The notes below the pieces were generated by a model, which saw only the letters and a list, made by a program, of their open reading frames with translations, searched no databases and was not told the DNA's origin. From the NCBI GenBank assembly GCA_964610955.1, contig CAZSYV010000004.1, positions 2,596 through 65,861 on the forward strand: DNA of 63,266 nucleotides. The letters are read 5' to 3'. Of this stretch, positions 1,822 to 61,082 are shown piece by piece. Each line of letters starts with the position of its first letter. Position 1 is the first letter of the stretch. The stretch comes from an uncultured Klebsiella sp. GTDB lineage: Bacteria; Pseudomonadota; Gammaproteobacteria; Pseudomonadales; UBA5518. A program made the position numbers and the translations under genes.

Positions 1822-1851
1822 GCCGTGGCCTGGACAAGGAGCAGCCATACC

Positions 1852-4443: not shown

Positions 4444-4458
4444 CGGCAGGTGAAGCCC

Positions 4459-25278: not shown

Positions 25279-25331
25279 TCGGCGCGCAGGGAATCCGAGA
25301 GGGTGCGATTGCGGCTAGAGGAGGGTGGAGC

Positions 25332-25958: not shown

Positions 25959-25964
25959 GAGTCG

Positions 25965-27376: not shown

Positions 27377-27407
27377 AGTCTGTCTCATGACCTCAAATGG
27401 AGATTCC

Positions 27408-28814: not shown

Positions 28815-28958
28815 CGGAGCGAGCAGGGGGGTCGAGCTCCAACCGGTGATCGTGTAGTATTCCGTGCTTTTGCGAAGAGCCCCGGGTGGTGCGCCAGCGA
28901 ACGGCAGGCGTGCGCCCGAGTGGCATCGGAACTCCCAACGGCGCGTGGTACAGCACGG

Positions 28959-30761
<1,803 letters not shown>

Positions 30762-30773
30762 CGGGTGAAGGGT

Positions 30774-48099: not shown

Positions 48100-48750
48100 T
48101 CAGCCCTGTGGCATGCCCAGCCACGACCGAATGCGTGAGTCGCGCCGCAGACCGATCACCAGTGATGCACCGGCATCGCGCAGCGCGATCACCGTTGCGG
48201 CACGGATCGCGTCCTCATCCGAGGTCAGTGCCGCAGTAGGCGTTTTGCCGTAGGCGGTGAAGTTCCAGTGGGCGATCGACTCCCCCGAGACGTCGAGGAT
48301 CTCCAGATCGTACTTGACCCAGATCTCGAAGATCTTCGCACGGGTATCGGCTGGCAGCGCAAACTGGAATTCGCTGACGCGCGGCACGATGATCGCCTGC
48401 ATGCCTGCAGGGCCACCGTGCGGCCCGGACAGCTCGTGCAGTTCGCGAAACGTGCTGGAGAACACGCTGCGAAATGCCTGCACCTGCGGATTTCCCAGGT
48501 TGATCGTCCATTCCTGCGCGGACGGAGCCGGGCGCTTTTCCTGGTGCGAGAACGTGCTGAATTCAGGAGGAAAATACACACCGATCGAAAGCTCCAGGGG
48601 ATCGACGAGTGCTGCCGGAAAGTCGTCGAGCGCGCGAACGTCGACGATGTGTGGACCACAGGCTGCAAGCAGCAGGGTGAGCAGCATGGGCACGATTGCC
48701 CTCAGTCGCAGCAGATCAGCCGGTGGTGAATGCCGAGGTTTCCAAGTCAC
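48100..48750 (-). CDS. Hypothetical lipoprotein (last gene of the TonB/vWA operon)
   Basis: Lipobox 'LLLAAC'; GTG start overlaps the upstream TGA, with GGAGG 7 nt upstream. Confidence 0.75.
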   Translation of the reverse strand: MTWKPRHSPPADLLRLRAIVPMLLTLLLAACGPHIVDVRALDDFPAALVDPLELSIGVYFPPEFSTFSHQEKRPAPSAQEWTINLGNPQVQAFRSVFSSTFRELHELSGPHGGPAGMQAIIVPRVSEFQFALPADTRAKIFEIWVKYDLEILDVSGESIAHWNFTAYGKTPTAALTSDEDAIRAATVIALRDAGASLVIGLRRDSRIRSWLGMPQG

Positions 48751-49742
48751 CTGTAATCCTCCAGTCCGACGAAGGTACCGTCGTTGCGCCATGTCAGCTC
48801 GCGCATCAGCGATGCGAAGCGCACCCCGGTGAAATCCTGATTCGGAGCAAGTGCAAATACCGTCGGGAAGCCGATGGCGTGGATGCGAACCAGCCGCTCG
48901 CCGCCGGTTTCGGCGTTGATGCGATCGACCTCGTTGATCACGCTGGCAATCGATTTCCCGGTGAATTCGTCACCGAGCACGTAGATGCTGATGCGTCGTC
49001 CCGGACGGTGGAAGGTACGGATCGCCGCCACGATGCCCTCGACCGGGCTGCTGTTGCTGTAAGGGTTCCAGTTGGCAAAGCGGCTGATGATCGCGTGCCG
49101 GCGCGCCGGGGTGTCGGGAATCCACTGCCCCCGGTAGCTGGAGAACATGTAGTCCCCCATGTCGTTCATCACCTGGATGCCCTTCAGCTTTGGATAGATG
49201 TCGAGGATGTGGATCATCTCGCGCTGCGTGCGCGGCCAGGCGTTGTAGAACATGCTTCCCGAAGTGTCGATCACGAAGATCACGTATTCGCTGTCGATCG
49301 GTATGCCGCCGATCGTGTCGTCACGGCGTTTTCCCTGCGCGCCGAGCAGGCGCTTCATCTCGGCGGTGAGGCGTTGCTTCGCGCTCTCGAGCTGTCCGGT
49401 GAGGCGGTCCTCGACCGTGTCGGTGCTGTGTGAGGCGGCGTGTTCACCACGGATCGTGGAGAGATCGCCCTGCAGGCGTGCCACCGCATCCAGCGTCTCG
49501 GAGAGCTGCTCGCGACGCGCATCGAGGTCGCGCTCGAACCGTATCGACTCACCGCGCAACTCCTGCAGTTCCTCCTGGAGTGCCGCGATGCGCCCGTGCA
49601 GGTCCTGTGTGCTGCGCTCCAGTGCCCGTGGCGCACCAATGCGCGTGATCATCATCAGCAGGATGATTGCTCCGAAGCCACAGCAGATCACGTCGAGAAA
49701 CGACAGGCTGAACGCCTCACTCGCGCGCCGGTTGAATCTCAT
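48747..49742 (-). CDS. Membrane-anchored vWA-domain protein 2
   Basis: TM 'FSLSFLDVICCGFGAIILLMMI', coiled coil, MIDAS 'IDTSGS', 'VLGDEF'. Confidence 0.85.
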   Translation of the reverse strand: MRFNRRASEAFSLSFLDVICCGFGAIILLMMITRIGAPRALERSTQDLHGRIAALQEELQELRGESIRFERDLDARREQLSETLDAVARLQGDLSTIRGEHAASHSTDTVEDRLTGQLESAKQRLTAEMKRLLGAQGKRRDDTIGGIPIDSEYVIFVIDTSGSMFYNAWPRTQREMIHILDIYPKLKGIQVMNDMGDYMFSSYRGQWIPDTPARRHAIISRFANWNPYSNSSPVEGIVAAIRTFHRPGRRISIYVLGDEFTGKSIASVINEVDRINAETGGERLVRIHAIGFPTVFALAPNQDFTGVRFASLMRELTWRNDGTFVGLEDYR

Positions 49743-50827
49743 GGCCAGTCCCGTGCGGGGGAGAGGAAGGCGCCACGGGTTCTGATCGCCAGTTGCCAGA
49801 ACGCCGATGCGGCCATTGGGTCGCCTTCCATCGGTGCCAGGATCACGTTGACCGGTACCCCGCGAGGCAGTGCCGCAAGCGCCTGATTGAAGTACTTCAT
49901 GCGATCGCGGCCACTGACCTTGGACGGTGGGCTGCCACTGCCCTGCGTCGGCAGACCGTCGGTGATCAGGTAGATATTGTCGGGTGCAGGCTTCATTGCC
50001 GCGACAGCCTCGAATGCGGCAAGGAGGCTGGTTCCGCCACTGGGGGTGATCATATCCAGAGCGGCAATCGCCCGCCCGAGCTGCTCGCGGTCGCTGACCG
50101 GGAGCCACTTGCCGGCAGTGTCCGGCAGCAGCGTTTCGGCACGGGTGGAGAATGACAGGATCTGATACTCGGCATCGGACGGAAACCGGGCGCTGATCCA
50201 GTTGACCGTGGCAAGCGCACGTTGCCATTTTGCTGCCCGTCGCCGCACCGGTTCAGGCATGTTGCGCAGCCGGATGATGTTGACCAGCGAGTGATCGAGC
50301 ATGCTTGCCGAGCGGTCGAGCAGCACGACGATGCGCCGTCCACCGAGCTTCAGCCCGGTGAGGTACTGACGGTCGCCATCGCCGATGAAGCGGCGCACAT
50401 CGCTGCCCGAATGACGTTCGGTCTCGGCGCGCAGCTGCTCGTTGCGCTGTTCGAGCTCGCGCAGGTCGGCCTTGAGCTGGTTCAGATGCTCGTTGCGCGC
50501 ACTGCTGTCGTGGCGGTTCCTGGCGAGTTCCTCGCGCCGTTCGCGGATCTCGCGCAGCAGCTCCCGTGATCGCCCACGTGCCTCGACGGTGGAGTCGTCG
50601 ATCATCGAGATGGTGTTGTGCAGCACAGCGAGCTTCTCGTGCTCCTCGCGTACCTCGCGGTCGTAGAACTCCACTTCGGCGAGCAGTTCGCGACTCGCAT
50701 CCTGCGCACGCAGCTCGCCGGAGTGATCGATGATCAGGAATACCAGAATCGTTGCACCGAAGCCACACGACATGATGTCGAGGAACGACAGGCTGAAGAT
50801 GGAAAATTCGCGGCGTTTACGGGCCAT
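49739..50827 (-). CDS. Membrane-anchored vWA-domain protein 1
   Basis: TM 'FSLSFLDIMSCGFGATILVFLI', coiled coil, MIDAS 'LDRSAS', 'GGTS', 'LITDGLP'. Confidence 0.85.
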   Translation of the reverse strand: MARKRREFSIFSLSFLDIMSCGFGATILVFLIIDHSGELRAQDASRELLAEVEFYDREVREEHEKLAVLHNTISMIDDSTVEARGRSRELLREIRERREELARNRHDSSARNEHLNQLKADLRELEQRNEQLRAETERHSGSDVRRFIGDGDRQYLTGLKLGGRRIVVLLDRSASMLDHSLVNIIRLRNMPEPVRRRAAKWQRALATVNWISARFPSDAEYQILSFSTRAETLLPDTAGKWLPVSDREQLGRAIAALDMITPSGGTSLLAAFEAVAAMKPAPDNIYLITDGLPTQGSGSPPSKVSGRDRMKYFNQALAALPRGVPVNVILAPMEGDPMAASAFWQLAIRTRGAFLSPARDWP

Positions 50828-52196
50828 CGTCGTCGACAGCCGATTCGGCGACCAGCCGCAGCGTATCGTCTCCGTCGTCAGGCTGCAGATGCTGGCCCGC
50901 CTGCACTGGCAGCGGTGCACTCACCGGGACGCCGTCGAGGCGCAGCATGGTGCCTGGTGCGGGAACCAGCAGCCAGCGCGAACCGTCCCAGCGCAGCGTG
51001 CCGGCGTAGGTCTGTGGCATGCGCTGAGACAGAGTCCAGCCGTCACGGTCGTGGCACAGGTAAAGACTGCTCGGCCGAAGTCGCAGGGCGCGCCCGCCGA
51101 TCACGAGGTGGCTGGGCAGGACTGGACTGGCCAGCAGAGGAGGGGGGTCGGGTGGCGCGTCGAGCTGGTCTGCGGGCTGGCCGTTGCCGTCGGGCGATGC
51201 CTCGCTGGCCGGGAGCCGGGTGACGAAGCGCAGAGTGGTGTCATTGCTGCCGATCAGTGCCTCGTGGTGCAGGCAGCCACGGATCGCTGCCTGTTCCTCG
51301 AGTGATGTGAATGCGGGCAACAGCTCTCCGATGCCCGGCAACGCCGCGAAGCGCGCGCTGGCGAGCAGCAGTACATTCTCGGCTCCGAGTTCGCGCTGCA
51401 CGGCCTGCACGATCTGGGTGTAGATCGGTCGGGCCGCATCGAGCACATCGGGTGCGCGCAGCTTCGCGTGGTAGACGCTTGCGTTGCTGTGGATTTCGAC
51501 AGCGGCATCTTCGCTGCCGTGCAGCATGTCCAGCCAGTCGGGAATGCGGTCGTAGAGCTGCTGCTCGCTTGCGGCGGCGTGCATCGGGTCGAAGCGGCTT
51601 TGTTGGATGAAGCGCCGTGCCAGCAGCTGTGCCCAGCGCTCGTACAGCTGCACCAGCCCGCAGCCCGGCAGGGTACGCACCGATTCGCGTGTGAGCATGT
51701 CGGCCTCGTGCCCGATGCGTGTCAGCACGCACTGGTGAAGCTGCAGGTCGAGGTGCAGCGTTGCGCCGCGGGTTGTCACCGTGCTGGCGGCGGCGAGCGC
51801 GCTGTCGACCAGCCCGGTGGCGCGAAATGCAGTGCGCTGTACGACTCCGAGCAGCACTGCGAGCTGTTCGCGGGTGAAACTTCCAGGGACGGCCAGGATG
51901 AGCTGTTGCGCTCCGTTCGCGGCAGTGGCGAGCTGCTGCAGTTGGGCCCAGGCCAGGTCGGCATGATGGCGTGCATGGTCGTGAGCCTCGTGCAGCGCTT
52001 CGGTGCCGAGGCGCAGCCAGAACTGGTTCAGCGTCTGGCGCGGTTCGCGGCGTGCACGTGCGCGTGCCGCCTCGCCGGTGATCACCCCATTGCGTGTGAT
52101 CGTCGCGTAGCCCGGACTGCGCAGTGGTGCTGCCTTGCCGTCGCCGAGCAGCAGCGCCGTGTCGTTGAGCTCGAGCACCCGGCTGTGTGTGTTCAT
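50817..52196 (-). CDS. Hypothetical cytoplasmic protein: degenerate Hsp70/actin-like NBD plus FHA-like domain
   Basis: DnaK-like spaced motifs ('SPGYA..GEAA...P..T..', 'ILAVPGSF..EQ..', 'VDSALAAA', 'LHLDL'); C-terminal 'LDGVPV...V.AG..L'. Confidence 0.6.
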   Translation of the reverse strand: MNTHSRVLELNDTALLLGDGKAAPLRSPGYATITRNGVITGEAARARARREPRQTLNQFWLRLGTEALHEAHDHARHHADLAWAQLQQLATAANGAQQLILAVPGSFTREQLAVLLGVVQRTAFRATGLVDSALAAASTVTTRGATLHLDLQLHQCVLTRIGHEADMLTRESVRTLPGCGLVQLYERWAQLLARRFIQQSRFDPMHAAASEQQLYDRIPDWLDMLHGSEDAAVEIHSNASVYHAKLRAPDVLDAARPIYTQIVQAVQRELGAENVLLLASARFAALPGIGELLPAFTSLEEQAAIRGCLHHEALIGSNDTTLRFVTRLPASEASPDGNGQPADQLDAPPDPPPLLASPVLPSHLVIGGRALRLRPSSLYLCHDRDGWTLSQRMPQTYAGTLRWDGSRWLLVPAPGTMLRLDGVPVSAPLPVQAGQHLQPDDGDDTLRLVAESAVDDDGP

Positions 52197-52999
52197 GGCT
52201 CGCGTGTGACCTTCAGGTGTCCGAGCAGGCGGCGGTCGGAGTAGGCCTGTGCGTCGAGCACGAGGCGTTCCTGCTGCAGTTGCAGCTGGTGCATCAGGAA
52301 CATGAGCAGGATGCTGATCACCAGTGCGACGAAGGTCGAGTTGAACGCGACACCAAGCGCTGCGGTAACGCCGGTGATGTCGCCTTCGACGGCGCGGTGC
52401 GCCTGCGTCAGCGCCATGCCGATGCCGCGCACGGTGCCGATGAAGCCAAACGAGGGGATGGCCCACGCGATGTAGCGCACCATCGAGAGCTCGGACTCGA
52501 GCCGCTCTCCCTCGGTTTCGCAGACCTCGTGGATCGCATTCGCGGTGTCCTGGATGCTGCGTGTGGCAGCAAAGCGCTGCAGCCCTGCAACCAGGGCGCG
52601 TGGCAGCAGTGCACGCGCCGTTTCAGGTGGCAGCGCCTGGATCGGGCGCAGGTACTCGCGCGCGTCTTCCGGCAGGATGCTGGTTCCCTCGGGAACCTGT
52701 ACCAGCGGCTGTTCGAGCAGGCGTTTTTCGACGCGCAGCGCCATTCCCTTGTAGCCCATGATGGCGAAGGACCAGAACATCAGCACAAAGCAGATCTCCT
52801 GTTCGTAGTCCTTCACGATCACCCACACGGAGGGTGCATGTGCGCTGGTGTCACCGAGCGCGAGTCGTGCCTGCTCGGCGGCCAGTACGGCCTCGGCCTC
52901 TGGCGCCACCACGGCGACGTAGAAGGCATGAACCACGATCAGCGCAATCAGCAGCGCGACCAGCTGAAAGAGAAACTCGGAGGCAAACAGGCGTTTCAT
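52193..52999 (-). CDS. MotA/TolQ/ExbB proton-channel family protein
   Basis: 'AIPSFGFIGTVRGI', 'LGVAFNSTFVAL', three to four TM segments. Confidence 0.92.
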   Translation of the reverse strand: MKRLFASEFLFQLVALLIALIVVHAFYVAVVAPEAEAVLAAEQARLALGDTSAHAPSVWVIVKDYEQEICFVLMFWSFAIMGYKGMALRVEKRLLEQPLVQVPEGTSILPEDAREYLRPIQALPPETARALLPRALVAGLQRFAATRSIQDTANAIHEVCETEGERLESELSMVRYIAWAIPSFGFIGTVRGIGMALTQAHRAVEGDITGVTAALGVAFNSTFVALVISILLMFLMHQLQLQQERLVLDAQAYSDRRLLGHLKVTREP

Positions 53000-53009
53000 G
53001 GTGTGGTGT

Positions 53010-53246
53010 TCAGATATCGGACGGGAATGATACGGAGAGATCCTCCGCAATGCTCTCGCTGGGAATGAAGCGCTCATCTTCCGGGTTGCGCGTTGTCTGG
53101 TGTGTTGCGGTGCCTGCCTTCTCGGTGTCGGTATCGACCACTGGCGGAGCCGTGGGCGGCGGTGTGCCTGTCTGCGGCATGTCCTGCGTGTGTGCTGCTA
53201 CGGTGAATGCCAGCAGTGCGAACATCGATGCAGCGGAGTGTTTCAT
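53010..53246 (-). CDS. Small secreted protein with an acidic C-terminal motif
   Basis: Signal peptide 'MKHSAASMFALLAFTVAA', Pro/Thr linker, 'DERFIPSESIAEDLSVSFPSDI'; ATGA overlap with the upstream gene. Confidence 0.7.
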   Translation of the reverse strand: MKHSAASMFALLAFTVAAHTQDMPQTGTPPPTAPPVVDTDTEKAGTATHQTTRNPEDERFIPSESIAEDLSVSFPSDI

Positions 53247-55306
53247 TCGGCGTACCTTGCAATGCGGAAACCGAGGTCGGGGCGAGGCCCCTTTCCGTAG
53301 TCGCGAAACGCCAGGCGCAGTGTCGTGACATCGCCATTGCGCCAGCTGGCGCCACGGATCGTGTGCAGCTCGCCCGACTGCGGGCCGAGTGGGTCACTGG
53401 AGCTCGCACCAGGCAGCGGCTCGTAGGCATCGTGCATCCATTCTGCCACGTTGCCGTCGAGATCGAAGATGCCGTGGCGGTTCGCCTTGAAGCTGCGTCG
53501 TGGTGCGGCGACGGGGAAACCGTCGTCGTAGTTCGCGAGGATCTCCCCGAGCAGCGTCGCACCGCTGCGATCGGCGAAGTTGCCGGCCCCGCGCGGTGGC
53601 GGCAGATCCTGTCCCCAGGCGAATCGCAGCGTCGAACCGTCGGCCATCACGCCAGCCGCCCACGCCCACTCGGCCTCGCTCGGCAGGCGATAGCCGCGGC
53701 TGTTCGGGTCGAAGCCAACGACGTGGCCACCCTGCACGCGGTAGAAGGGCTCGAGCTTGTCCCGGGCGCTCAGCCAGTTGCAGTAGAGGGCTGCATCCTC
53801 CCAGCCGAGGTTCACCGCAGGCAGCGTGTCGGCATCGAGCGCCTTGCCCTTGAACTCCCCCGATGCATGTGCGGGACGGAAGCGGCGGAACTCGCCATTC
53901 CCGACCTCGGCAACACCGATGAAGAAGGGTCGCCGCATGCGGACTTCGTGCAGCGTTTCGTTGGCTCGCCGGCCGAGCTCGCGGCGCGAGGAGCCCATTG
54001 TGAAGGTGCCTGGTCGCAGCAGCACCAGTTCCTGGCCCTCGGAGCTGGTGATGCGCTCCTCGCGCGGTGCCGCAGCGGCCTTTGGGGTCGTCAACGGGCG
54101 CAGTTTCACCTCGATGCGCTGCGCAAAGCCTGGGCGCGGAGTGAAGCGCAGCTCGTGCGTCTGGTAGCCGCTGCGCTGGACGCGCAGCGTATGCTCGACT
54201 CCGGGTAGCGTGAGGCTGCGCGTGCCGCGCGACACGGGGCGCGCATCGAGCAGCACATCGGCATCCGCAGGTTCGATCGCGAGCTGTACCTCACCATTCT
54301 GGGGTGCCAGCTTCAGCGTCAGTGTCTGGGTGCCGGAGTTCGCCGGCAGGGAGCGGACGACGCGTTCATGACCGGCCTTGAAGGCGATCAGCTCATGTAC
54401 CTGACTCGAGTCGATTGCGAGCTCCAGTGGTGCACGTCCCTGGAATACGCCATCGAGCGTGATGCTTGCCCCTTCGGGGTGGGTGGTGATGCGCAGCACG
54501 GCATCGGCGCGTTCGAGAGTCAGCGGCTCGAGCGTGCGTTCCTCGCCGGCGTTGGCGTCGATCATCAGGACGCCATCGCGGTGACCATCCAGGCGAAGGC
54601 GCAGGTGGTGGGTGCCAGCCAGCAGCTCGATGCGTGCCGGCGTGCTCGCCACTGCGGCGTCATCGACCAGGATGGCTGCACCCGGAGGCTGGGAATCGAT
54701 GTCGTAGCTACCCCAGCCCGGGGCGAGCGTGACGTCCAGCGTCTGCAGTTCGCCCCTTCCGATAATGGAGATCGTCTGTTCGTGTGTGAGAAATCGATCT
54801 GCCTCGATGCGCAGTCGGTGGTCTCCGGCGGCGAGCCCGATAGGCGCTCCATTGCTGTCGCCAACTGGATTGTCGTCGATCACGATGTGTGCGATGACCG
54901 GCGTGGTGTGCACGGCAATGCGCCCCGGCAGCGGCATCAGCTGGATGGCGAGCTGCTGGTCGCGACTGGCGTCGATCCGTACCTCGCGCTGGGTGGCAGC
55001 GTATCCCGGGGCTGTTGCGTGCACCGTGTAGTCACCCGGGTGCAGCAGGACCCGTCGGCCGAAGGGAACTGTCGGTCCGCCGGAAACCGTCACCTGGGTG
55101 TTGCTGGGGTCGAGCTGCAGCACGAGCACTCGTGCACCGAGCACGAACCAGGTGACTGTCGCCAGAGCGACCAGCACCGCGCCAAGTGCAAACCAGTGTC
55201 CGCGTGGTCCGGTCCGGTGCCCACGTCGCGCTGCGGGTGGCGTATAAGCGAGTGGTGCGATCGGTTCATCGATACCCGTATCGCTTGCCTGATCGTGCCG
55301 ACTCAC
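53243..55306 (-). CDS. Membrane-anchored multi-PEGA plus FGE-sulfatase (SUMF1)-fold protein
   Basis: N-terminal TM; several PEGA repeats ('TTPV.A.I.ID', 'SQPPGA.I.VD', 'THPEGA.I.LDG'); C-terminal 'FTMGS', 'P.V..WEDA..YC.WLS', 'RLPSEAEW', 'GNVAEW', 'RGASW', 'GFR'. Confidence 0.9.
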   Translation of the reverse strand: MSRHDQASDTGIDEPIAPLAYTPPAARRGHRTGPRGHWFALGAVLVALATVTWFVLGARVLVLQLDPSNTQVTVSGGPTVPFGRRVLLHPGDYTVHATAPGYAATQREVRIDASRDQQLAIQLMPLPGRIAVHTTPVIAHIVIDDNPVGDSNGAPIGLAAGDHRLRIEADRFLTHEQTISIIGRGELQTLDVTLAPGWGSYDIDSQPPGAAILVDDAAVASTPARIELLAGTHHLRLRLDGHRDGVLMIDANAGEERTLEPLTLERADAVLRITTHPEGASITLDGVFQGRAPLELAIDSSQVHELIAFKAGHERVVRSLPANSGTQTLTLKLAPQNGEVQLAIEPADADVLLDARPVSRGTRSLTLPGVEHTLRVQRSGYQTHELRFTPRPGFAQRIEVKLRPLTTPKAAAAPREERITSSEGQELVLLRPGTFTMGSSRRELGRRANETLHEVRMRRPFFIGVAEVGNGEFRRFRPAHASGEFKGKALDADTLPAVNLGWEDAALYCNWLSARDKLEPFYRVQGGHVVGFDPNSRGYRLPSEAEWAWAAGVMADGSTLRFAWGQDLPPPRGAGNFADRSGATLLGEILANYDDGFPVAAPRRSFKANRHGIFDLDGNVAEWMHDAYEPLPGASSSDPLGPQSGELHTIRGASWRNGDVTTLRLAFRDYGKGPRPDLGFRIARYAE

Positions 55307-56886
55307 ACCTTCTCCACGCACTGCACGAGCACTTCGGCGGGAGTCTGTCCGGCACGTACGCGGAACTCGATGCGCACGTCGCGAAAGCCGTTGCGACGAC
55401 CGACGGCGACGTAATTCCCCGGCAGCAGTTCCAGGGTTCTTTCCACCAGCGTGCCGTAGCTGCCGACGCGCAGCACGCTGACCTCGGTCTGCCCGTCGGA
55501 GCGCAGCTGCAGCGTGAGGGGTGTGCTGTAGGTCCTCAGCAGGCCGCGTACCGCTGCCAGGCGTGCCTTCAGCCGGGGCCCCGGGTCGCTGATCGCGGCG
55601 GCACGGGCGAGCAGTTCGCCGGCACGGCTGCGTGTGCCCGGCTCGAGCAGGCGATCGGGTGTGTGTTCGAGTTCTGTCAGCGCCTCGTCGAGTGCGATGC
55701 GCCGTGCTGCCTCCCGGCTGCCTTCGATCGCGGGGCCGAGTGTCGCGTCGATCGTCAGTGCCGCATCGAAATCACGCCTTGCCTTCACCCAGTCCTCGGC
55801 GTGTGCCGCCTGGCGTGCGCTGCCGAGCAGCTCGGCAATGCGCTGCTGGCTGAGCTGGAACTGCGCCTGCTGCAGTCCTTCGCGTGCCTCCGTGCCCGTC
55901 CCGTGCAGCGCCAGTGCCGCGCGGAATTCCTTCGCTGCGCCTGCATTGTCGGCCCGTGCGAGTGCCCCGAAGCCGGCAGAAAGGTGCTCCCTGTAGCGTT
56001 GCCCGGCGATGCGTGAGCGCAGATCGTCGAGCGCCTTGCGCGCTGGCGCGTACTCGCCATCGAGCGCCAGCGCCTGCTCGTAGTTCTGTTGTGCCAGCGC
56101 TGTGTCGCCCGCTGCATCGGCAACGGTGGCCCGTGTGCTCAGTTCGAGCACCTGATCCAGCGTGGCGGCGCGCTGCAGTCCGTGGCGTGCTGCGGCGTTT
56201 TCCTGATCGATCGCCAGTGCTTCGGCAAACAGTGCGGTTGCCTGGGCGGAATCACCTGCCGCAAGCGCAGCGGAGCCGCGGGTGAGCCGATCCTGCAGCC
56301 GTGTGCCGATGCCGTCGAGCGTTGCCTGCAGGATGGCAGTTGCCTCGCGGTAGCGTGTCTGCGCCGTTTCATGATCCCCCTCACGGTATGCTGCATCGCC
56401 CTCGGCCGCGAGCGAGGACGCCTGCTCGAGTTCCGGCTTCGCCCAGTCGCCTGCCCGACGTTCCTGCAGTTCGTGCTGGAGCATGAGCAAGGTGTCCAAT
56501 GCCTTCTTTGCTGCCTGGCGCTGCTGTTCGTCGACCATCCGCGCGTAGGGTGACTCCGTGGCGGGGGGCTGGGCTTCGATCGGGGGCGCTGGCGGTGTGG
56601 CGTCGGTCGTCTGTGCCGATCCTGCCGTTGCAGAAGTTTCCGGGGTCATCGTCTGTGTCGCTGCTGCGTGCTGGCGGGCGACATAGTCGGGGAGCAGGAA
56701 GAAGACGCCAGCGGCAAGGGCGAGCAGGGCGCCGATCAGCAGTGCCGGCAGCGGCAACGGTCTGCGTTGAACGGCATTCGGGATGGGGCTCGCTGCCTGC
56801 GAGATATCGACTTTCGCTGGCAGGATGCGGTCGAACTCCTTGCCGCCCATCAATGGTGTTCCCGTCCCCGATCGAGGTGGATGCAC
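55303..56886 (-). CDS. Membrane-anchored TPR/coiled-coil protein with a C-terminal PEGA-like domain
   Basis: TM 'LLIGALLALAAGVFFLLP', Pro/Ala linker, TPR-like helices ('A..LF.EAL.ID.EN..A..GL'), beta-rich tail 'LLPGNY.A.G.R.GFRD'. Start is either GTG 56886 or ATG 56850. Confidence 0.75.
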   Translation of the reverse strand: MHPPRSGTGTPLMGGKEFDRILPAKVDISQAASPIPNAVQRRPLPLPALLIGALLALAAGVFFLLPDYVARQHAAATQTMTPETSATAGSAQTTDATPPAPPIEAQPPATESPYARMVDEQQRQAAKKALDTLLMLQHELQERRAGDWAKPELEQASSLAAEGDAAYREGDHETAQTRYREATAILQATLDGIGTRLQDRLTRGSAALAAGDSAQATALFAEALAIDQENAAARHGLQRAATLDQVLELSTRATVADAAGDTALAQQNYEQALALDGEYAPARKALDDLRSRIAGQRYREHLSAGFGALARADNAGAAKEFRAALALHGTGTEAREGLQQAQFQLSQQRIAELLGSARQAAHAEDWVKARRDFDAALTIDATLGPAIEGSREAARRIALDEALTELEHTPDRLLEPGTRSRAGELLARAAAISDPGPRLKARLAAVRGLLRTYSTPLTLQLRSDGQTEVSVLRVGSYGTLVERTLELLPGNYVAVGRRNGFRDVRIEFRVRAGQTPAEVLVQCVEKV

Positions 56887-56887
56887 A

Positions 56888-58072
56888 TCATGGCATGCCG
56901 GATTCTGCGGCGTAGATGTCACGCAGCACACCGCGCCACTGGCGGTACTGCTCCTCTGCAGTGCCGCTCAGTGTGACACGCCGCTCGTCGAGGTCGATGA
57001 CCCGTGGCTGGACTTCGGCACCCAGCGATGCACCGAGCTCCTTCAGTGTTTCCGCGTGCATCTTCGACTCCTCGCGCTTGTCCATGCCGCTCTTCACCAT
57101 GACCGCGCCGCCGATGATGCCCACGGATCCGGCCGCACGCGTTCGGGCGTTGTCACTGCCCTGCGCGGCGATGCCTCCGATGATCGCGGCAATTCCCGCC
57201 ACCGTGCGCAGGGTCGCCTGGCGACGCATCTCCTGGTATGCCAGGGCTTCGCCGTGGGTCTCGCGCCGCCAGTCCTGGTACGGTCGTGACATCTGTCGGG
57301 CAAAGGCGTCGTACTGATCCTGCAGCGTGTCGATGAACAGTGCGTCGCGTTCGCGGATGCGCCGCACTCGCTCGAGCATCGGATCGCTTTCTGCCGGCAG
57401 GCGAACGATGTGCGTGATTCCCTTGCGGTCGGTGTCGAGGTAGCCGTCGAAGGCCTGCGGCGAGAATGTGGCGGCGAACTTCAGCTCGGCGATGGTGCGC
57501 AGTTCACGTACGTGGCGGGGCTCGATCTCCGCACGATAGGCAGCCAGGTCGTTCGCGATGCGGTTGTATACGTCCTGAAAGGGGTCGAGGGCTGGTGCAC
57601 CCGCCGCGCTGTCGTAGCTGTAGCGACTTGCGGTGCCTTCATAGCGGCGGGTGTACCACCGGGCGCCGCTGACGTCGCTCGCGGTGATCTCGAGTTCGAG
57701 TTCGAGCCCGGTCGACTTGAGGATCCGTCCCTGCACGATCACATCGCTCACGGCAGTCTGGTCGGGAATCACGCGCACCGCGCCCCAGTGGCCGCTGCCC
57801 TGCAGGGTGGTGGCGAGCACCACCGGCATGTAGCGTGCCTCGGCCTCACGGATCTCGGGGGCGGTCAATATCTCGTTTTCGCCGAGCCGCTCCACGCCTG
57901 GGGCGAAAGGGCGCACGGCGACGTCCAGCAGTTCCTCTTCCGGGCGTGTGGGGTCGCCCTTGTTTACCGGTGTCACGGTCGTGGTGCGCACCGTGTTGGC
58001 GCCACAGGCACAGAGCAGCGCGAGCACACAGCTCAGCAGCGTGAAGCGGATCAGCAGTTGCAGCTGCCTCAT
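56888..58072 (-). CDS. Hypothetical lipoprotein with an alpha/beta domain and glycine-zipper hairpin
   Basis: Lipobox 'LLCAC'; 'VAGIAAIIGGIAA...AAGSVGIIGGAVMVKSG'. Confidence 0.75.
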   Translation of the reverse strand: MRQLQLLIRFTLLSCVLALLCACGANTVRTTTVTPVNKGDPTRPEEELLDVAVRPFAPGVERLGENEILTAPEIREAEARYMPVVLATTLQGSGHWGAVRVIPDQTAVSDVIVQGRILKSTGLELELEITASDVSGARWYTRRYEGTASRYSYDSAAGAPALDPFQDVYNRIANDLAAYRAEIEPRHVRELRTIAELKFAATFSPQAFDGYLDTDRKGITHIVRLPAESDPMLERVRRIRERDALFIDTLQDQYDAFARQMSRPYQDWRRETHGEALAYQEMRRQATLRTVAGIAAIIGGIAAQGSDNARTRAAGSVGIIGGAVMVKSGMDKREESKMHAETLKELGASLGAEVQPRVIDLDERRVTLSGTAEEQYRQWRGVLRDIYAAESGMP

Positions 58073-59238
58073 CGCCCTTTCTCCTTCCTCGTCAGACCCG
58101 TGTACTTGCGGTATTCGTCCCACAGTCTTTCACGCAGCTCGGGATCCTTCTCCTTCATTGCCGCTTCGCGTATCTGACGTGCGACCACATCGTCCGCGCT
58201 GCCGTCGGGAATGTCCGCAGGCACGGCGGCGCTCGCCTGTCGGGCTGCACCCGGGCCACTGCGGCCCGAGGTGCCGTTCTGCGTCGTGGCGGTGCTCACT
58301 CCGCCTGGGGTGGCTGCCCCTGCAGAATCTGTTTCGCTGGTGACATCCGCTGTCCCGTATCCGGGCGAATCCTCGTTGCCGTCCTCGGGTGCGGAGGCGC
58401 CTTGTTCCATGCCCGCATGGCTTCCAGCCTTCTCTGCGCGCTCCATTGCGCGCGCACGCTCGCCGGCCAGCGTGTCATCGAAGCGTCCGAGCGATACGCC
58501 GAGTTCACGTTCGAGGCGGGCGACTTCGAGGGCTGCCGTACCCTGGGCACCGCTGCCGCTCGTGCCGACTTGCTGTGGGCTGCCCGTGCCAGCGCCAGTA
58601 TTCGTGCCTGCACTCGTGTGCCGTTGTGCCTCCGTGTCCTGCTGTCCGCCAGCCGTGCCTCGATGTCCACCAGCGGTGCCCTGTTGTCCGTCGGGTCCCT
58701 GCTGGTTGCGGTCATTCTCCACCCCAACTGCCGCTGTGTCGTTTCCTGACGTATTCCCGTCTGCCTGCGCTGGCGTTCCCGCGGCCGAGGTTGACTGGTG
58801 CTCGCGCATCGCCTCGAGTGCGGCGTCGAGCACATCCTGTTCGGCTTCGGCTTCAGTAGTACGCGAGGGGTGCTCCGGATCCTCCAGGGTGATCTCCTGA
58901 CTGTTCCCTGTATCGCTGTCTGCTGCCGCGGCAGTCGTTGCATTGGCTTCTGGCTGGTTCACTGGAGCCTGTGTGGCATCCCGTGATGACTCACCAGATG
59001 GTGAACCACGCTTGCCCTTGTCGCCTGCAGCGCCAGCCGATGGCGATGTGGAGGCGGCACTGCCTTGCTGAGACGGTGTTGGCGCCGGTGCAGATGACGA
59101 AGCCGAAGATGAAGCCCCGGCCGTTGGTGGTGTGGGTATTGAGGGTGCGGTACTGGTCGTCTTGCAGCCACCGAGCACGAGCAGGCAAAGCAGTCCTGCA
59201 AGGCGTGCGGACACGCAGTTCATCGGCCACTTCCTCAT
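58069..59238 (-). CDS. Low-complexity lipoprotein with a short helical C-terminal domain
   Basis: Lipobox 'VLGGC'; about 300 aa rich in Ala/Gly/Ser/Thr/Gln; ends 'DIPDGSADDVVARQIREAAMKEKDPELRERLWDEYRKY'. Confidence 0.75.
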   Translation of the reverse strand: MRKWPMNCVSARLAGLLCLLVLGGCKTTSTAPSIPTPPTAGASSSASSSAPAPTPSQQGSAASTSPSAGAAGDKGKRGSPSGESSRDATQAPVNQPEANATTAAAADSDTGNSQEITLEDPEHPSRTTEAEAEQDVLDAALEAMREHQSTSAAGTPAQADGNTSGNDTAAVGVENDRNQQGPDGQQGTAGGHRGTAGGQQDTEAQRHTSAGTNTGAGTGSPQQVGTSGSGAQGTAALEVARLERELGVSLGRFDDTLAGERARAMERAEKAGSHAGMEQGASAPEDGNEDSPGYGTADVTSETDSAGAATPGGVSTATTQNGTSGRSGPGAARQASAAVPADIPDGSADDVVARQIREAAMKEKDPELRERLWDEYRKYTGLTRKEKGR

Positions 59239-60479
59239 GGTGTGTACGAGTACTGGTAGTCAACGTTTTCGGTCGCTACCGGTTGACCGTTCTCGAAGCG
59301 CGGACGAAAGGTCGTGGTGGAGATTCGCCTGCGCAGGCGCTGCACTTCCCGCTCGCTCGCAGGAGGGGAGGACTCGAGAACCTGCATGCCGCTCGCCCTG
59401 CCGTTCTCGTTCACGCTGAAGCGCACGCTGATCCACCCCGTGTCGTCGTGCGGCATCGGCACCGCGCTGATGTCGGCCGGAAGCAGTGGCAGTGGACGCG
59501 GCTTGCCGAACACGACATCGCGTATCTGCGCCGCCTCGCTGCCGGAGCGTTCGCCGTGCGCCCAGGCTTCCTGATAGAGGCGCAGCGCGCTCTGGCGCCG
59601 AGCGAACAGCTGGTGCCAGTCGGCAAGTTCGGCAAGCGCCTCGCTGCGCTCGAGGGGGTTGCTCGTGGTGTCGCGATCAAGCAGGTCGGCAGCGCGGCGC
59701 AGCGCATCGCGCCCCGAGGCGAAACTGTTGGCGATTTGCGCCTGAATCGCCATCTGCTCGTTCTGCTCGCTGCCAAACCCCGTGCTTTCGCGCACCAATG
59801 GCGCCTGACCCGCGACGTAATAGTCGACCAGCGCGCGGCGGCGCAGTGCTTCGGCGATGCGTCGTTCCTGCGGGCCGTGGTTCGTCTCGAGGATGGTGAC
59901 CGCCGAGTCGTAGAACTGGCGCGCGCTCAACAGGTGCTGCACGGGATCCTTGCCGATCCCGTCGAGGTAGGCACGCATATGCCATGCGGAGAGCCGGTTG
60001 AGTACCGGCACCAGCCGTTCATCGTTGTCGCCGTAGTTGCGTCGATAGATGACGAATACCTGACGGTAGCGGTTCTGCACCTTTTCCCAGTCGCCAAGTG
60101 CCGCGTGGCTTTCGATCAGCCGCTCCAGTACCGGCAGGTCTGCGCGGCTGTACAGGCCTTCATTGATGCGTGTGATGTGTTCCGCGCGGCTCAGCGCAGC
60201 TACAGCCTCGGCGTGGCGACCCTGCTGCTGATACACGAGTCCGAGTCCGAGCAGTTCCTGCTGCAGCGCGGCAGCCCAGGCGCCGCCCTCGGCCTCGAGT
60301 GCCTGCACGCTGTCGAGATAACGCTGAACGGGTGCGGGCGCTTCCTGCTGGATGCGATCGCCCGCGGCGTCGGCAGCTCCTGCAATGGCGCCAGCCGACT
60401 GGAGCACGAGAGCGCAACCGACCGTGAGCGTGACCCACCGTCCGACACCACCAGGCGTACTGCGTTCGCCGCGAGACAT
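59235..60479 (-). CDS. TPR plus TonB C-terminal domain (energy transducer-like) protein
   Basis: N-terminal hydrophobic segment, TPR repeats, C-terminal 'GWISVRFSVNENGRAS.MQVLES.P..F.PRFENG.PV'. Confidence 0.85.
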   Translation of the reverse strand: MSRGERSTPGGVGRWVTLTVGCALVLQSAGAIAGAADAAGDRIQQEAPAPVQRYLDSVQALEAEGGAWAAALQQELLGLGLVYQQQGRHAEAVAALSRAEHITRINEGLYSRADLPVLERLIESHAALGDWEKVQNRYRQVFVIYRRNYGDNDERLVPVLNRLSAWHMRAYLDGIGKDPVQHLLSARQFYDSAVTILETNHGPQERRIAEALRRRALVDYYVAGQAPLVRESTGFGSEQNEQMAIQAQIANSFASGRDALRRAADLLDRDTTSNPLERSEALAELADWHQLFARRQSALRLYQEAWAHGERSGSEAAQIRDVVFGKPRPLPLLPADISAVPMPHDDTGWISVRFSVNENGRASGMQVLESSPPASEREVQRLRRRISTTTFRPRFENGQPVATENVDYQYSYTP

Positions 60480-60509
60480 ACGTTTTGCCTGCCACCCTGT
60501 CATGGCCGC

Positions 60510-60515
60510 ATTCTA
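60510..60515 (-). promoter_or_regulatory. Putative -10 (TAGAAT) of the TonB/vWA operon
   Basis: TAGAAT on the - strand 30 nt upstream of the ATG, followed by a GC-rich discriminator; a divergent TATAGT lies at 60578-60583. Confidence 0.35.
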
Positions 60516-60618
60516 GCGCCAGTGCACGGGTGCGGCGAGCACGTCGCTGCGCTGTGGTTCAGTCTCTGGTGAGGCGCTATAGTCGTTGCCTGTCCGGGTG
60601 TGAGTGGGGCGAGGATCG

Positions 60619-61032: not shown

Positions 61033-61082
61033 AGGGCGCGGATCGGTCGACACGAACCTTTGACAAACTGGAGAATCCTGCA

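Follow-up and report, generated by a model that had tools for sequence, protein, structure and literature searches.

Eleven genes in the 63,266-nucleotide stretch of DNA analyzed here (the window) form an operon that is fairly likely to encode a motor powered by ion flow, probably of protons, along with its own dedicated trans-envelope assembly, which would act on outer-membrane (OM) lipoproteins. The genes are co-oriented on the minus strand and span positions 48100-60479 (table 1).

Operon organization and the predicted motor core

An open reading frame check of the window agrees with the arrangement described in an earlier note on this DNA: seven junctions are 4-bp ATGA/GTGA overlaps (G1/2, G2/3, G4/5, G5/6, G7/8, G9/10, and G10/11), the G8/9 junction is an 11-bp overlap, and two are short gaps (G3/4, 1 or 37 nt; G6/7, 10 nt). 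Gene prediction by a second, independent program on identical metagenome contigs gave the same genes, differing solely by shorter starts for G2, G4, and G11. No terminator-like sites were found on the minus strand within the operon. Pfam and NCBIfam searches identified TPR and TonB_C domains in G1, TPR in G4, three PEGA repeats and an FGE-sulfatase domain in G5, MotA_ExbB in G7, and VWA_2 in G9. Lipoboxes were predicted for G2, G3, and G11, single N-in transmembrane helices (TMs) for G4, G5, G9, and G10, and signal peptides for G1 and G6 and none for G8. This is in line with the earlier proposal of a proton-motive-force (PMF)-type motor of the MotA/TolQ/ExbB kind, whose predicted parts extend from the cytoplasm across the inner membrane and periplasm to the outer membrane.

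Table 1. Genes of the operon with predicted localization and the positions of conserved elements (nt, window coordinates).
Gene	Description	Position	Strand	Predicted localization or features	Elements within the gene
G1	TPR-TonB_C	59235-60479	-	secreted	TonB_C-like domain, 59238-59453
G2	disordered lipoprotein	58069-59238	-	lipobox LGGC, Cys25	C-terminal helical motif, 58072-58227
G3	core lipoprotein	56888-58072	-	lipid Cys23	Gly-zipper-like segment, 57077-57205
G4	TM-TPR, core	55303-56886 (alternative ATG at 56850)	-	bitopic, inner membrane	cytoplasmic tail motif, 56797-56835
G5	TM-PEGA-FGE-fold, core	53243-55306	-	bitopic, inner membrane	cytoplasmic tail motif, 55235-55273; FGE-sulfatase-fold domain, 53246-54019
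G6	78-aa small protein	53010-53246	-	secreted or membrane-tethered	C-terminal tail, 53013-53063
G7	TolQ/ExbB-like channel subunit	52193-52999	-	3 TMs	TM2 motif, 52409-52474; TM3 motif, 52295-52357
G8	Hsp70-NBD-like + FHA-like	50817-52196	-	cytoplasmic	FHA-like region, 50820-51119
G9	vWA1	49739-50827	-	single TM + coiled coil + vWA	N-in helix, 50726-50797; Asp17, 50777-50779; MIDAS, 50303-50317
G10	vWA2, G9 paralogue	48747-49742	-	single TM + coiled coil + vWA	helix, 49641-49712; Asp17, 49692-49694; MIDAS, 49254-49268
G11	lipoprotein	48100-48750 (alternative ATG at 48687)	-	lipobox LAAC, Cys31	

G7 matches Pfam MotA_ExbB (E 1e-14) and scores under the cut-off of the NCBIfam tolQ/exbB models. 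Conserved motifs in TM2 (IPSFGFIGTVRGIG) and TM3 (AFNSTFVAL) each include a channel threonine, and these residues (Thr189 and Thr222) are invariant; in a weak profile match to TolQ 8odt (E 0.027) the GT(V) and (S)T positions fall on the TolQ threonines. G9 and G10 are full-length paralogues (hhalign E 2e-50) with a common invariant helix, SFLD(V/I)..CGFGA, that carries an invariant Asp17 in each protein, and with coiled coils of ~115 and ~105 residues, respectively. The vWA assignment of G10 is based on its paralogy to G9 and its DTSGS MIDAS motif (DRSAS in G9). Invariant MIDAS residues are D171/S173/S175, T266, and D290 in G9 and D159/S161/S163 in G10, so that the DxSxS motif reads as intact in both. 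No canonical ExbD/TolR/MotB, TonB-dependent receptor, TolB/Pal, or MoxR was detected in the locus with Pfam/NCBIfam profiles. The absence of a canonical ExbD/TolR/MotB noted earlier holds for the locus, but the role is not missing: the N-terminal helices of G9 and G10 with their invariant Asp are predicted to fill it.

Conservation and relation to the published TPH-vWA family

Across 80 related genomes, each full-length locus has all 11 genes in one and the same order, down to 30% identity, with the qualification that G6 was often under tblastn detection in this set and was seen in some genomes only. The shared order is far beyond chance, and the junctions are likewise tight in the relatives' loci. 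G9 and G10 were both found in 79-80 of the loci, G7 is the most conserved gene (53-63% identity), and a G8 relative is encoded by 230 species genomes. Independent assortment of the genes, which the earlier note had set against a conserved unit, fails, and related clusters occur in marine gammaproteobacteria, as it had suggested.

Four loci (L087-L090) represent a short form that keeps G2', G3, G4, G5, G7, G9, and G10; G1, G8, and G11 are missing from all four, and a G6-sized gene was called in two (39 aa in L090). Sequence comparison allows an invariant core of 7-8 genes (G2', G3, G4, G5, the small G6, G7, G9, and G10) and a Pseudomonadales long form (the core plus G1, G8, and G11) to be newly recognized here. 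Most relatives carry two additions, a 12th lipoprotein and a BepA-like M48 protease; the latter is appended to the operon in 51/63 relatives and is absent from this window.

The earlier note regarded the machine as uncharacterized, but its motor core is not undescribed. A TolQ-like protein with a pair of TPH-vWA proteins was reported from Idiomarina in an in silico study (Williams-Jones et al., MBE 2025, PMC12204202), whose AF3 models put the Asp pair within the pentamer's ring of Thr residues. G10 groups in one family with the Idiomarina clade (33% identity to the Alteromonadales clade containing it) and the window operon is orthologous to the Idiomarina operon gene by gene. By these alignments the window genes are orthologues of the published family, whose motor core has been known computationally since 2025.

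This synteny contradicts a reading in which G7 is an ordinary ExbB/TolQ for an ExbD/TonB encoded elsewhere and the other genes are unrelated neighbours. The TonB_C domain of G1 and the ExbB-like Pfam match could suggest an ordinary Ton system, but gene order and co-occurrence are strictly kept to 30% identity, the junctions are translationally coupled, the TolR-type Asp helix is on the vWA proteins themselves, G1 has no predicted membrane anchor, and the canonical Tol-Pal and Ton systems of Idiomarina lie at loci distinct from the operon. We regard this reading as the least probable of those considered. Since Idiomarina already has both canonical systems, the operon fills no evident gap that would point to its function.

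An anti-phage or conflict system, either Zorya-like with a MotAB-type sensor or a "ternary" system of vWA, Hsp70, and FGE domains, would account for the weak ZorA matches to G7 (E 1e-3, 15.8 bits) and for the domain content of the operon, as vWA, FGE-fold, Hsp70-like, and FHA domains are all found among catalogued conflict systems (PMC7159879). This reading is very improbable and a defence role is unsupported: a PADLOC search gave nothing beyond ZorA, and the locus encodes no nuclease, protease, NTPase, other effector, or MoxR. Gene order is constant across families as identity declines from close to more distant relatives, the flanking genes are ordinary chromosomal housekeeping genes with no defence island, and streamlined genomes retain the operon. 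The latter include Porticoccus genomes of 1.3-1.4 Mb; the operon is also present in metagenome-assembled genomes (MAGs) labelled SAR86. Both hosts are presumably planktonic, which for Porticoccus is judged from genome size.

Putative scaffold proteins, lipoproteins and long-form accessories

G2 has a long disordered stretch of low complexity and, at its C-terminus, a conserved helical motif (...DDVVARQIREAA..DPELRERLWDEYRKY), similar to that retained by its Idiomarina and Thalassomonas counterparts. Its lipid Cys is conserved in at least 90% of 52 orthologues, and searches of Pfam, NCBIfam, and PADLOC returned no match. In G3 the lipid Cys is immediately followed by a conserved strand (TVRTTTVTP). 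An alpha/beta N-domain, a ~70-residue helical hairpin tipped by the Gly-zipper-like segment, and a small C-terminal domain make up the protein (AF2 pLDDT 77.6). The N-domain shows borderline Foldseek likeness to LptE and the TolB N-domain (E ~1e-3, TM ~0.2-0.36); G3 has no sequence match in the PDB, and its orthologues in Idiomarina and Thalassomonas are 28-32% identical.

G4 has a cytoplasmic tail with an I-x-P motif, one TM (residues 46-64), and a periplasmic TPR/helical region (Pfam TPR_2). G5 combines a cytoplasmic tail motif, a TM (residues 39-57), PEGA or carboxypeptidase-regulatory-like repeats (Pfam PEGA 4e-36), and a C-terminal FGE-sulfatase-fold domain (Pfam 2e-34) in which both catalytic cysteines are absent on a reading of the sequence ...IRGASWRNGDVTTLRLAFRD. 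Profile searches of the PDB matched G5 to FGE, PvdO, and PorK. The PEGA calls of the earlier note are borne out for G5, whereas support for a PEGA-like nature of the G4 C-terminal beta domain is weak (hhalign probability 42% against the first PEGA-like repeat of G5). G6 ends in a conserved tail (...SVSFPSDI-COOH) kept in 33 orthologues, and its 42-aa Idiomarina counterpart ends in ...SPVAFPVDI.

Among the long-form accessories, G1 matches Pfam TPR_12 and TonB_C, and a family profile of its C-terminal domain (residues ~343-414) matches TonB2 2k9k (E 2e-5) as well as several more TonB C-domains. G8 consists of an Hsp70-NBD-like part (residues 1-330), a disordered linker (335-355), and an FHA-like part (360-459). 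The best PDB matches of its AF2 model (pLDDT 90.7) in Foldseek are DnaK/BiP/Hsp70 NBDs (E 1e-15, TM 0.66-0.74), the nucleotide-binding loops are degenerate in alignments, the FHA profile matches are weak (E 0.02-0.25), and UniRef labels its homologues "FHA domain-containing protein". These results bear out the degenerate Hsp70/FHA call made earlier, and G8 is predicted to be a cytoplasmic pseudo-ATPase that joins an Hsp70-NBD-like domain to an FHA domain. G11 has no match in Pfam, NCBIfam, or the PDB. Two co-variations hint at partners. The tail motif, at a fixed distance to the TM, occurs in 41/64 G5 and 21/57 G4 proteins (~1 expected) and is absent from loci lacking G8, and conservation of the G3 N-terminal strand is limited to loci with G1; both span essentially two lineages and could be explained by shared ancestry.

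These parts bear on a surface-motility or adhesion machine, Agl-Glt-like or Gld-like, in which the motor would move an adhesin. Glt proteins include TonB_C and FHA domains, the two TolR-like partners per motor (G9/G10) recall AglQ/AglS, and the G5 FGE-fold domain resembles GldK/PorK. A vWA domain also serves as an adhesin, CglB, in Myxococcus gliding (as cited in PMC12204202). The reading is nevertheless unlikely and a gliding role is unsupported: the Pfam/NCBIfam searches found no OM barrel, secretin, large repetitive adhesin, or T9SS gene in the operon, the vWA heads of G9/G10 are predicted to be anchored in the inner membrane and not on the surface, and the operon is kept in the presumably planktonic Porticoccus and SAR86-labelled hosts. 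Family membership is not supported: the GldK, GldJ, and BatC models score far under their cut-offs (G5 against GldK, 72.9 bits, cut-off 350) and the Glt-like parts that prompted the comparison, G1 and G8, are lineage-specific accessories dispensable in the short form. The Agl-Glt and Gld parallels drawn earlier stand as analogies only.

A PMF-energized device for the export, release, or insertion of a specific cargo (e.g., G6 or OM lipoproteins) would follow a logic comparable to PorLM powering the T9SS, with the motor, the periplasm-spanning shaft, and the FGE-fold protein paralleling PorL/M plus PorK. The motor gene adjoins the small secreted G6 with its strictly conserved tail, and several dedicated lipoproteins are encoded. 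However, the operon encodes no translocon-like OM protein, and G6 is just 39-78 aa, most of which is taken up by the conserved tail and a segment serving as signal or anchor; its size and composition look more like those of a subunit or regulator than of cargo. Such a device is about as doubtful as a motility machine.

Proposed machine and output

For the favoured lipoprotein-handling motor, we infer the following contacts. The motor would belong to the MotAB/ExbBD/TolQR "5:2" class, with G9 and G10, probably a heterodimer, taking the place of TolR/ExbD/MotB and reaching into the ring of G7 subunits with their N-terminal helices. Ion flow via the Asp/Thr pathway may turn or pull the pair, whose coiled coils would form a periplasmic shaft (about 15-17 nm if continuous) and place two metal-dependent protein-binding vWA heads near the peptidoglycan or outer-membrane zone. 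G4 with its TPR region and G5 with its PEGA stalk and non-catalytic FGE-fold head probably form a static scaffold, and the predicted OM lipoproteins G2 and G3 and the small G6 are likely partners or targets of the vWA heads. In the long form, soluble periplasmic G1 may bind the conserved G3 N-terminal strand as TolA binds TolB, G8 may dock on the I-x-P-x-D-F motif common to the G4 and G5 cytoplasmic tails in a manner similar to PilM on the PilN tail, and G11 would be an additional lipoprotein.

As to output, we would tentatively propose that the machine uses the PMF to handle OM lipoproteins or serves envelope maintenance, alongside Tol-Pal and not replacing it, because of the lipoprotein content, the M48 protease next to the operon in relatives, and the retention in small genomes. 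Overall, the operon is widely conserved and is predicted to encode a proton-driven envelope motor in which two long-stalked, vWA-headed proteins stand in for the usual TolR/ExbD partner; relative to the published description (PMC12204202), the invariant 7-8 gene core and the Pseudomonadales long form with G1, G8, and G11 are new.

Operon organization and chromosomal setting

The open reading frames and junctions of the eleven co-oriented genes G1 to G11 were found exactly as the earlier note had described them. Seven junctions are 4-bp ATGA/GTGA overlaps, G8 and G9 overlap by 11 bp, and short gaps separate G3 from G4 and G6 from G7. The same gene calls were identified on identical contigs in public metagenome assemblies. 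For G2, gene callers place the start on these contigs ~90 codons downstream (296-297 aa), by which the signal peptide is lost. The short call is probably wrong since the long form carries a lipobox cysteine that is kept in at least 90% of the orthologues; the long form also has the 4-bp overlap with the stop of G1. Between species, the low-complexity central part of G2 differs greatly in length. A terminator scan revealed no minus-strand terminator-like site inside the operon, no sigma-70-like promoter was detected upstream of G1, and the promoter/terminator scan was nowhere above shuffled expectation. A 544-aa antisense open reading frame with gene-like GC3 overlaps G1 and G2 and is most likely a by-product of the high GC content and not a gene.

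Location of the operon genes and of other features mentioned in the text (window coordinates unless a locus handle is given; L016 is a related locus used as an example, L087 the short-form locus of Idiomarina xiamenensis)
Feature	Location	Strand	Length or remark
G1	59235-60479	-	414 aa
G2	58069-59238	-	389 aa
G3	56888-58072	-	394 aa
G4	55303-56886	-	527 aa (515 aa from ATG 56850)
G5	53243-55306	-	687 aa
G6	53010-53246	-	78 aa
G7	52193-52999	-	268 aa
G8	50817-52196	-	459 aa
G9 (vWA1)	49739-50827	-	362 aa
G10 (vWA2)	48747-49742	-	331 aa
G11	48100-48750	-	216 aa
G5 tail motif	55235-55273	-	fixed distance from TM
G4 tail motif	56797-56835	-	fixed distance from TM
G3 mature N-terminus	57962-58015	-	beta-strand-like TVRTTTVTP; G1-containing operons only
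G6 C-terminal tail	53013-53063	-	V-x-F-P-x-D-I-COOH
G6 with conserved C-terminal tail, Idiomarina	L087:8017-8145
12th lipoprotein gene	L016:14099-14782		example locus
M48 protease gene	L016:14798-16207		example locus
Antisense open reading frame	58938-60572	+	544 aa
Luciferase-like monooxygenase	61005-61985		adjoins operon
F420 biosynthesis cluster	14639-19540	+	cofE-like F420 ligase, cofD, fused cofG/H radical-SAM protein
Envelope-stress/housekeeping cluster	24691-31613	+	rpoE-like ECF sigma factor, MucB/RseB, DegP/MucD-like protease with PDZ domains, lepA, lepB
Gene trio at window start	13-6885	+	DUF1302, DUF1329 (LolA-like), MMPL-RND-type

The operon is flanked by ordinary chromosomal genes (beta-lactamase-fold, trpS, enoyl-CoA hydratase, M18 peptidase, SnoaL, luciferase-like and acyl-CoA dehydrogenase), and relA, adk, lepA, lepB, an rpoE-mucB-degP cluster and F420 biosynthesis genes are found elsewhere in the window. 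The F420 cluster lies on a gammaproteobacterial chromosome of 64% GC. Neither tRNA genes nor signs of mobile elements were found in the 63-kb window. A defense function was considered based on matches to the Zorya protein ZorA. A PADLOC analysis of 10 proteins returned noise-level matches to ZorA and LmuB and nothing else; the ZorA matches (13-16 bits) lie on the shared MotA core and none of ZorB, ZorC, ZorD or ZorE was found. With PADLOC at noise level, no effector and a locus that is not island-like, Zorya and a defense system in general were rejected.

The putative motor genes and the TPH-vWA family

G7 matches the Pfam family PF01618 (MotA_ExbB, 1e-14), displays three transmembrane segments in a simple topology analysis, and shows a weak profile alignment to TolQ over TM2-TM3 (E = 0.027). 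Residues T189 (GTV) and T222 (NST) are invariant in the G7 family alignment and align with the TolQ channel threonines, which we take to be essential TolQ residues. The two vWA proteins, G9 and G10, are paralogues (29% identity over the first ~190 residues by BLASTP) with full-length homology (hhalign, E = 2e-50), and both are present in 79-80 loci. Each begins with a basic N-terminus followed by a helix of invariant sequence (S-F-L-D-(V/I)-x-x-C-G-F-G-A), in which Asp17 is invariant among the 79-80 sequences of either protein and is also found in Idiomarina and Thalassomonas. As read from these alignments, the helix is the single-Asp trans-membrane helix that defines MotB, ExbD and TolR. The helix is followed by a coiled coil of ~105-115 residues and a vWA domain with an invariant MIDAS (DxSxS and the distal Thr/Asp in G9, DTSGS in G10). 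Pfam and NCBIfam identify VWA_2 in G9 and only faint coiled-coil matches in G10, and PDB sequence-profile searches with both proteins returned generic coiled-coil matches and a weak integrin I-domain match at the MIDAS site, nothing else.

No Pfam or NCBIfam match to ExbD, TolR, MotB or OmpA was found among the 11 operon proteins, and neither ExbD nor a TonB-dependent receptor was identified at the locus or in the scanned regions of the window. The absence of ExbD and TolR from the locus, as reported in the earlier note, was thus reproduced, but their role is not vacant: the missing partner gene is explained by the Asp helix on G9 and G10.

This arrangement belongs to a published family. Williams-Jones et al. 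(Mol Biol Evol 2025, Fig. 4c-d; PMC12204202) described putative motors composed of a TolQ-like protein and paired proteins with a trans-pore helix and a vWA domain (TPH-vWA), a family that was seeded with Idiomarina loihiensis. According to that study, TPH-vWA genes co-occur tightly with tolQ homologues that lack tolR or exbD, mostly as heterologous pairs, and the proteins carry a TolR/ExbD-like trans-pore helix with a conserved Asp; in AF3 models, and in these alone, the two Asp residues lie within the pentamer's ring of threonines (PMC12204202). The reported distribution covers Proteobacteria and Verrucomicrobia, with the breadth beyond the Gammaproteobacteria being the finding of that paper alone (PMC12204202). 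In Idiomarina loihiensis, canonical loci for Tol-Pal and Ton are present too (supplement of PMC12204202), and the vWA motor is a system additional to them.

The window contains a MotA/TolQ/ExbB channel gene without syntenic tolR, exbD or motB, an adjacent heterologous pair of single-TM vWA genes, the trans-pore Asp, the channel threonines and orthology to the Idiomarina operon; this orthology makes the window operon a member of the TPH-vWA family, whose TolQ-like gene, two Asp-helix vWA genes and Thr ring are the same as in G7, G9 and G10. The published study covers the motor genes only and reports no function; non-motor genes are not discussed there, and its text and supplements make no mention of PEGA, FGE, sulfatase or Hsp70 (PMC12204202). 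Compared with that study, the present analysis adds a conserved upstream core (G2', G3, G4, G5 and G6, where G2' is the short-form G2-like gene), a long form with G1, G8 and G11, and, for most relatives, genes for a 12th lipoprotein and an M48 protease. The description of the operon as uncharacterized therefore needs to be divided: no functional study of the operon was found in the literature, but the motor core had already been published in silico.

Core genes, accessory genes and candidate contacts

A scan with one genome per species identified a relative of G8 in 230 genomes. The homologues are annotated as hypothetical or FHA proteins, nothing more, and their hosts include Porticoccaceae, Microbulbifer, Cellvibrionaceae, Halieaceae, Pseudohongiella, SAR86-labelled MAGs, Nevskia and others. 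The expectation that the genes form a conserved unit was borne out: among 80 loci, all 11 genes occur in the same order in every one that is long enough, down to 30% identity for G8, with short intergenic distances throughout, and the small G6 is often below tblastn sensitivity in these loci. G7 is the most conserved protein (53-63% identity), followed by G10, G9 and G3. The vWA2 (G10) family contains 1,505 clusters at 50% identity (E <= 1e-3). The whole ~13-kb operon, ~1% of the genome, is kept in two streamlined Porticoccus genomes (L033, NZ_CP159825.1, 1.44 Mb; L047, OX044352.1, 1.31 Mb), which speaks for a housekeeping role.

A clade of the Alteromonadales to which Idiomarina xiamenensis belongs shares 33% identity with G10 (E = 1e-50). 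A shorter version of the operon, the short form, is present in four loci, those of Idiomarina xiamenensis (L087), Thalassomonas viridans (L088) and Ca. Endobugula sertula (L089) and one on a metagenomic contig (L090). Their gene order is G2' (small and secreted), G3, G4, G5, G6, G7, G9 and G10, and G1, G8 and G11 are absent from all four; in L087 and L088, tblastn recovered G3, G4, G5, G7, G9 and G10 in unchanged order, and a short-form G6 of 39-42 aa was called in two of the four loci (L087 and L090). By its gene content, the short form defines an invariant core of 7-8 genes (G2', G3, G4, G5, G6, G7, G9 and G10). In the long form, G8 sits between the A-subunit gene (G7) and the B-subunit genes (G9 and G10). 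A 12th lipoprotein gene lies directly 3' of G11 in 57 out of 63 related loci outside the window clade (L014-L086) and is followed in 51 of those loci by a gene for a secreted M48 protease that is closest to BepA. Both genes are absent from the window clade (the window, L008, L011 and L013), and tblastn of the whole 63 kb was empty. A relationship between G11 and the 12th lipoprotein was ruled out as the hhalign match is confined to the signal peptide.

Pfam and NCBIfam returned nothing for G2, G3, G6, G8, G11 and the 12th gene of the relatives, and PDB sequence-profile searches returned nothing for G3 and G11. In a simple topology analysis, G2, G3 and G11 contain lipoboxes with a residue other than Asp at +2, G1 and G6 have signal peptides, G4, G5, G9 and G10 have a single N-in TM, and G8 has neither signal peptide nor TM. 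In E. coli, the residue at +2 decides the membrane of a lipoprotein, with non-Asp leading to the outer membrane, and G2, G3 and G11 are accordingly predicted to be outer-membrane lipoproteins. The lipobox cysteine and a C-terminal helical motif of G2 are conserved, and the motif is still recognizable in the short form. The G3 model (pLDDT 77.6) consists of an N-domain, a ~70-residue helical hairpin whose tip is a Gly-zipper-like segment of low model confidence, and a small C-terminal domain. A Foldseek search with this model gave borderline similarity of the N-domain to LptE and the TolB N-domain and nothing else, which is taken as a lead and not as a finding. G6 is a real gene; its C-terminal tail is strictly conserved, is common to the Pseudomonadales long form and Idiomarina, and could be a MIDAS ligand or plug.

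G1 contains TPR and TonB_C domains (Pfam/NCBIfam), its family profile matches TonB C-terminal domains in the PDB (2k9k, E = 2e-5, and several more), and the topology analysis describes a secreted TPR protein without a TM anchor. G4 contains TPRs, and a resemblance of its C-terminus to the PEGA repeats of G5 is suggestive only (hhalign probability 42%). A Bat/MoxR-vWA aerotolerance operon was ruled out since MoxR and DUF58 are absent; the match to the BatC model reached 21.5 bits (cut-off 175) and was confined to the TPRs of G4. G5 contains three PEGA repeats and an FGE-sulfatase domain (Pfam/NCBIfam), and profile matches of the latter include FGE, PvdO, PorK and a Treponema variable protein. 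In the segment after RG(A/S)SW, which we take to be the site of the catalytic, copper-binding Cys pair of FGE, cysteines are lacking both in the window and in the consensus of the family. By this reading of the sequence, a catalytic FGE is ruled out and the C-domain of G5 is a non-catalytic FGE-fold module.

The description of G8 as a degenerate Hsp70/FHA protein agrees with its model (pLDDT 90.7), in which residues 1-330 match Hsp70 NBDs (Foldseek, E = 1e-15; TM-score 0.66-0.74 to NBD-only entries) and are followed by a disordered linker and by residues 360-459 with repeated weak FHA matches. The three nucleotide-binding loops of the Hsp70/actin superfamily, which in Hsp70 read DxGTT, DLGGGT and GGxxRxP (phosphate-1, phosphate-2 and adenosine), are replaced by non-glycine sequence in 23 out of 23 aligned homologues, with the family consensus LND(S/T)xL, LDLQLHQ and SxRxAxLPG. 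G8 is therefore most likely a pseudo-ATPase. A true Hsp70 chaperone was ruled out by the degenerate loops and the lack of a substrate-binding domain, in whose place the C-terminus is FHA-like; no Pfam HSP70 match was found in G8.

Two candidate contacts emerged from co-variation between operon forms. A motif I-x-P-x-[DE]-[FILVY] is common to the cytoplasmic tails of G5 and G4, where it lies 16-26 residues ahead of the TM and occurs in 41 out of 64 G5 and 21 out of 57 G4 sequences (~1 expected by shuffling); in the window, the corresponding segments are residues 12-24 of G5 and 18-30 of G4, and the motifs are relaxed to IAPLAY and ILPAKV. The motif is confined to operons with a G8 gene; in the short form, which has no G8, the orthologues show a deletion of the motif. 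Similarly, the lipidated Cys of G3 is immediately followed by a conserved strand T-V-K/R-T-T-x-x-T-P wherever G1 is present, and a different sequence takes the place of this strand in the short form, which lacks G1. The G3 N-terminal peptide, CGANTVRTTTVTP, is a candidate partner of the G1 TonB_C domain (residues 343-414) and recalls the TolA-binding N-terminus of TolB. These patterns suggest that G8 contacts the G4 and G5 tails and that G1 contacts G3, and both contacts are put forward as hypotheses since the support comes from essentially two lineages.

Relation to known envelope systems and proposed mechanism

Several features are shared with Tol-Pal: a channel of the TolQ type whose partner helix carries an Asp, the TonB/TolA-type C-domain of G1, a G3 N-domain weakly like that of TolB, the TPRs of G4 (compare CpoB) and, as the likely final targets, lipoproteins of the outer membrane. 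However, the operon lacks the TolR periplasmic domain, the TolB beta-propeller, an OmpA-like Pal and a membrane-anchored TolA with an SHLS helix, G1 being soluble; TolR, anchored TolA, the TolB beta-propeller and Pal gave no Pfam or NCBIfam match at the locus. The TonB of the Ton system has an N-terminal TM and a Pro-rich linker, whereas G1 is a secreted TPR protein. In the alignment complex of type IV pili, PilM is an actin/Hsp70-superfamily cytoplasmic protein and PilN a bitopic protein with a short conserved N-terminal cytoplasmic motif, which offers a possible analogy for G8 and the G4 and G5 tails, although G8 best matches Hsp70 NBDs and not PilM or FtsA and has an FHA domain and degenerate loops.

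A gliding or adhesion machine, one of the outputs considered in the earlier note, which drew analogies with Agl-Glt and Gld, has likenesses in both systems. GldLM-PorLM shares an inner-membrane ion-driven motor, a single-TM partner as a long dimeric periplasm-spanning shaft and an FGE-sulfatase-fold protein (PorK/GldK), but G7 is TolQ/ExbB-like and not GldL, and the shaft consists of a coiled coil and vWA instead of GldM domains. Furthermore, PorK/GldK is an outer-membrane lipoprotein whereas G5, which has a TM and no lipobox, is linked to the inner membrane by its PEGA repeats; the GldK model TIGR03525 scores 72.9 bits on G5 (cut-off 350) over the FGE domain only, and GldL, GldM, GldN and other T9SS genes gave no NCBIfam match. 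Common to the operon and the Myxococcus Agl-Glt system are a channel of the MotA/TolQ type that has two distinct TolR-like partners, TPR, TonB_C and FHA domains among the accessory proteins, and the involvement of a vWA protein (CglB in Myxococcus). The likeness seen is at the level of domains only: general Pfam and NCBIfam models identified no outer-membrane barrel such as those of Glt and no TolR-domain protein at the locus, the vWA domains are on motor B subunits and not on a surface adhesin, and TonB_C and FHA are optional accessories. With no adhesin, barrel or T9SS gene found in the operon, the gliding analogy is not upheld by these searches and gliding or adhesion is not favored.

The ideas of a motor and of a trans-envelope assembly both hold, the former based on the G7 channel and the Asp/Thr motifs on G7, G9 and G10, and the operon probably encodes a motor with a trans-envelope assembly. 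G7, presumably a pentamer, would house the G9 and G10 helices, and ion flow past the Asp/Thr pathway would turn or pull the G9/G10 pair. With a coiled-coil rise of 0.15 nm per residue, the coiled coil would measure ~15-17 nm if continuous and would bring two MIDAS heads close to the outer membrane. G4 and G5 would serve as inner-membrane-anchored scaffolds, with the PEGA stalk of G5 lifting the FGE-fold head to a similar height, and the outer-membrane lipoproteins and G6 would be the likely ligands of the vWA heads.

The favored output is proton-motive-force-dependent handling of outer-membrane lipoproteins or envelope maintenance, because of the lipoprotein content, the BepA-like protease in most relatives, the housekeeping context and the retention in very small genomes. 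A secretion device would be a further use of such a motor, but the operon lacks a translocon and secretion is not favored. Tentatively, and with more doubt than confidence, the operon might represent a fourth class of Tol/Ton-type motor beside Ton (nutrient import), Tol-Pal (septal outer-membrane stabilization) and gliding/T9SS, in which a rotating heterodimeric coiled-coil shaft with two MIDAS vWA heads would take hold of dedicated outer-membrane lipoproteins (G2, G3 and G11) and remodel them mechanically, gated from the cytoplasm by G8 as an Hsp70-derived pseudo-ATPase/FHA clutch that reads the G4 and G5 tails.

To our knowledge, ion-driven 5:2 motors are the only route for energy delivery to the outer membrane of Gram-negative bacteria, and each known class (flagellar stator, Ton, Tol-Pal, Agl-Glt, GldLM and Zorya) opened a field. 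The family described here is large, chromosomal and kept in genomes of 1.3-1.4 Mb. What was a three-gene bioinformatic description is now a parts list of a 7-8 gene core and 3-5 accessory genes; the full parts list, the core/accessory split and the testable contacts of a widespread envelope motor are new here. Culturable carriers of the operon or its marker genes include Simiduia, Porticoccus litoralis DSM 25064 (L039) and Microbulbifer, the latter two for the long form, and Idiomarina, Thalassomonas and Pseudoalteromonas for the short form. If the fourth motor class is real, hundreds of marine gammaproteobacterial species would harbor a novel cell-biological process, and if the output is outer-membrane lipoprotein handling or envelope maintenance, the operon would bear on the envelope biology of abundant marine heterotrophs.
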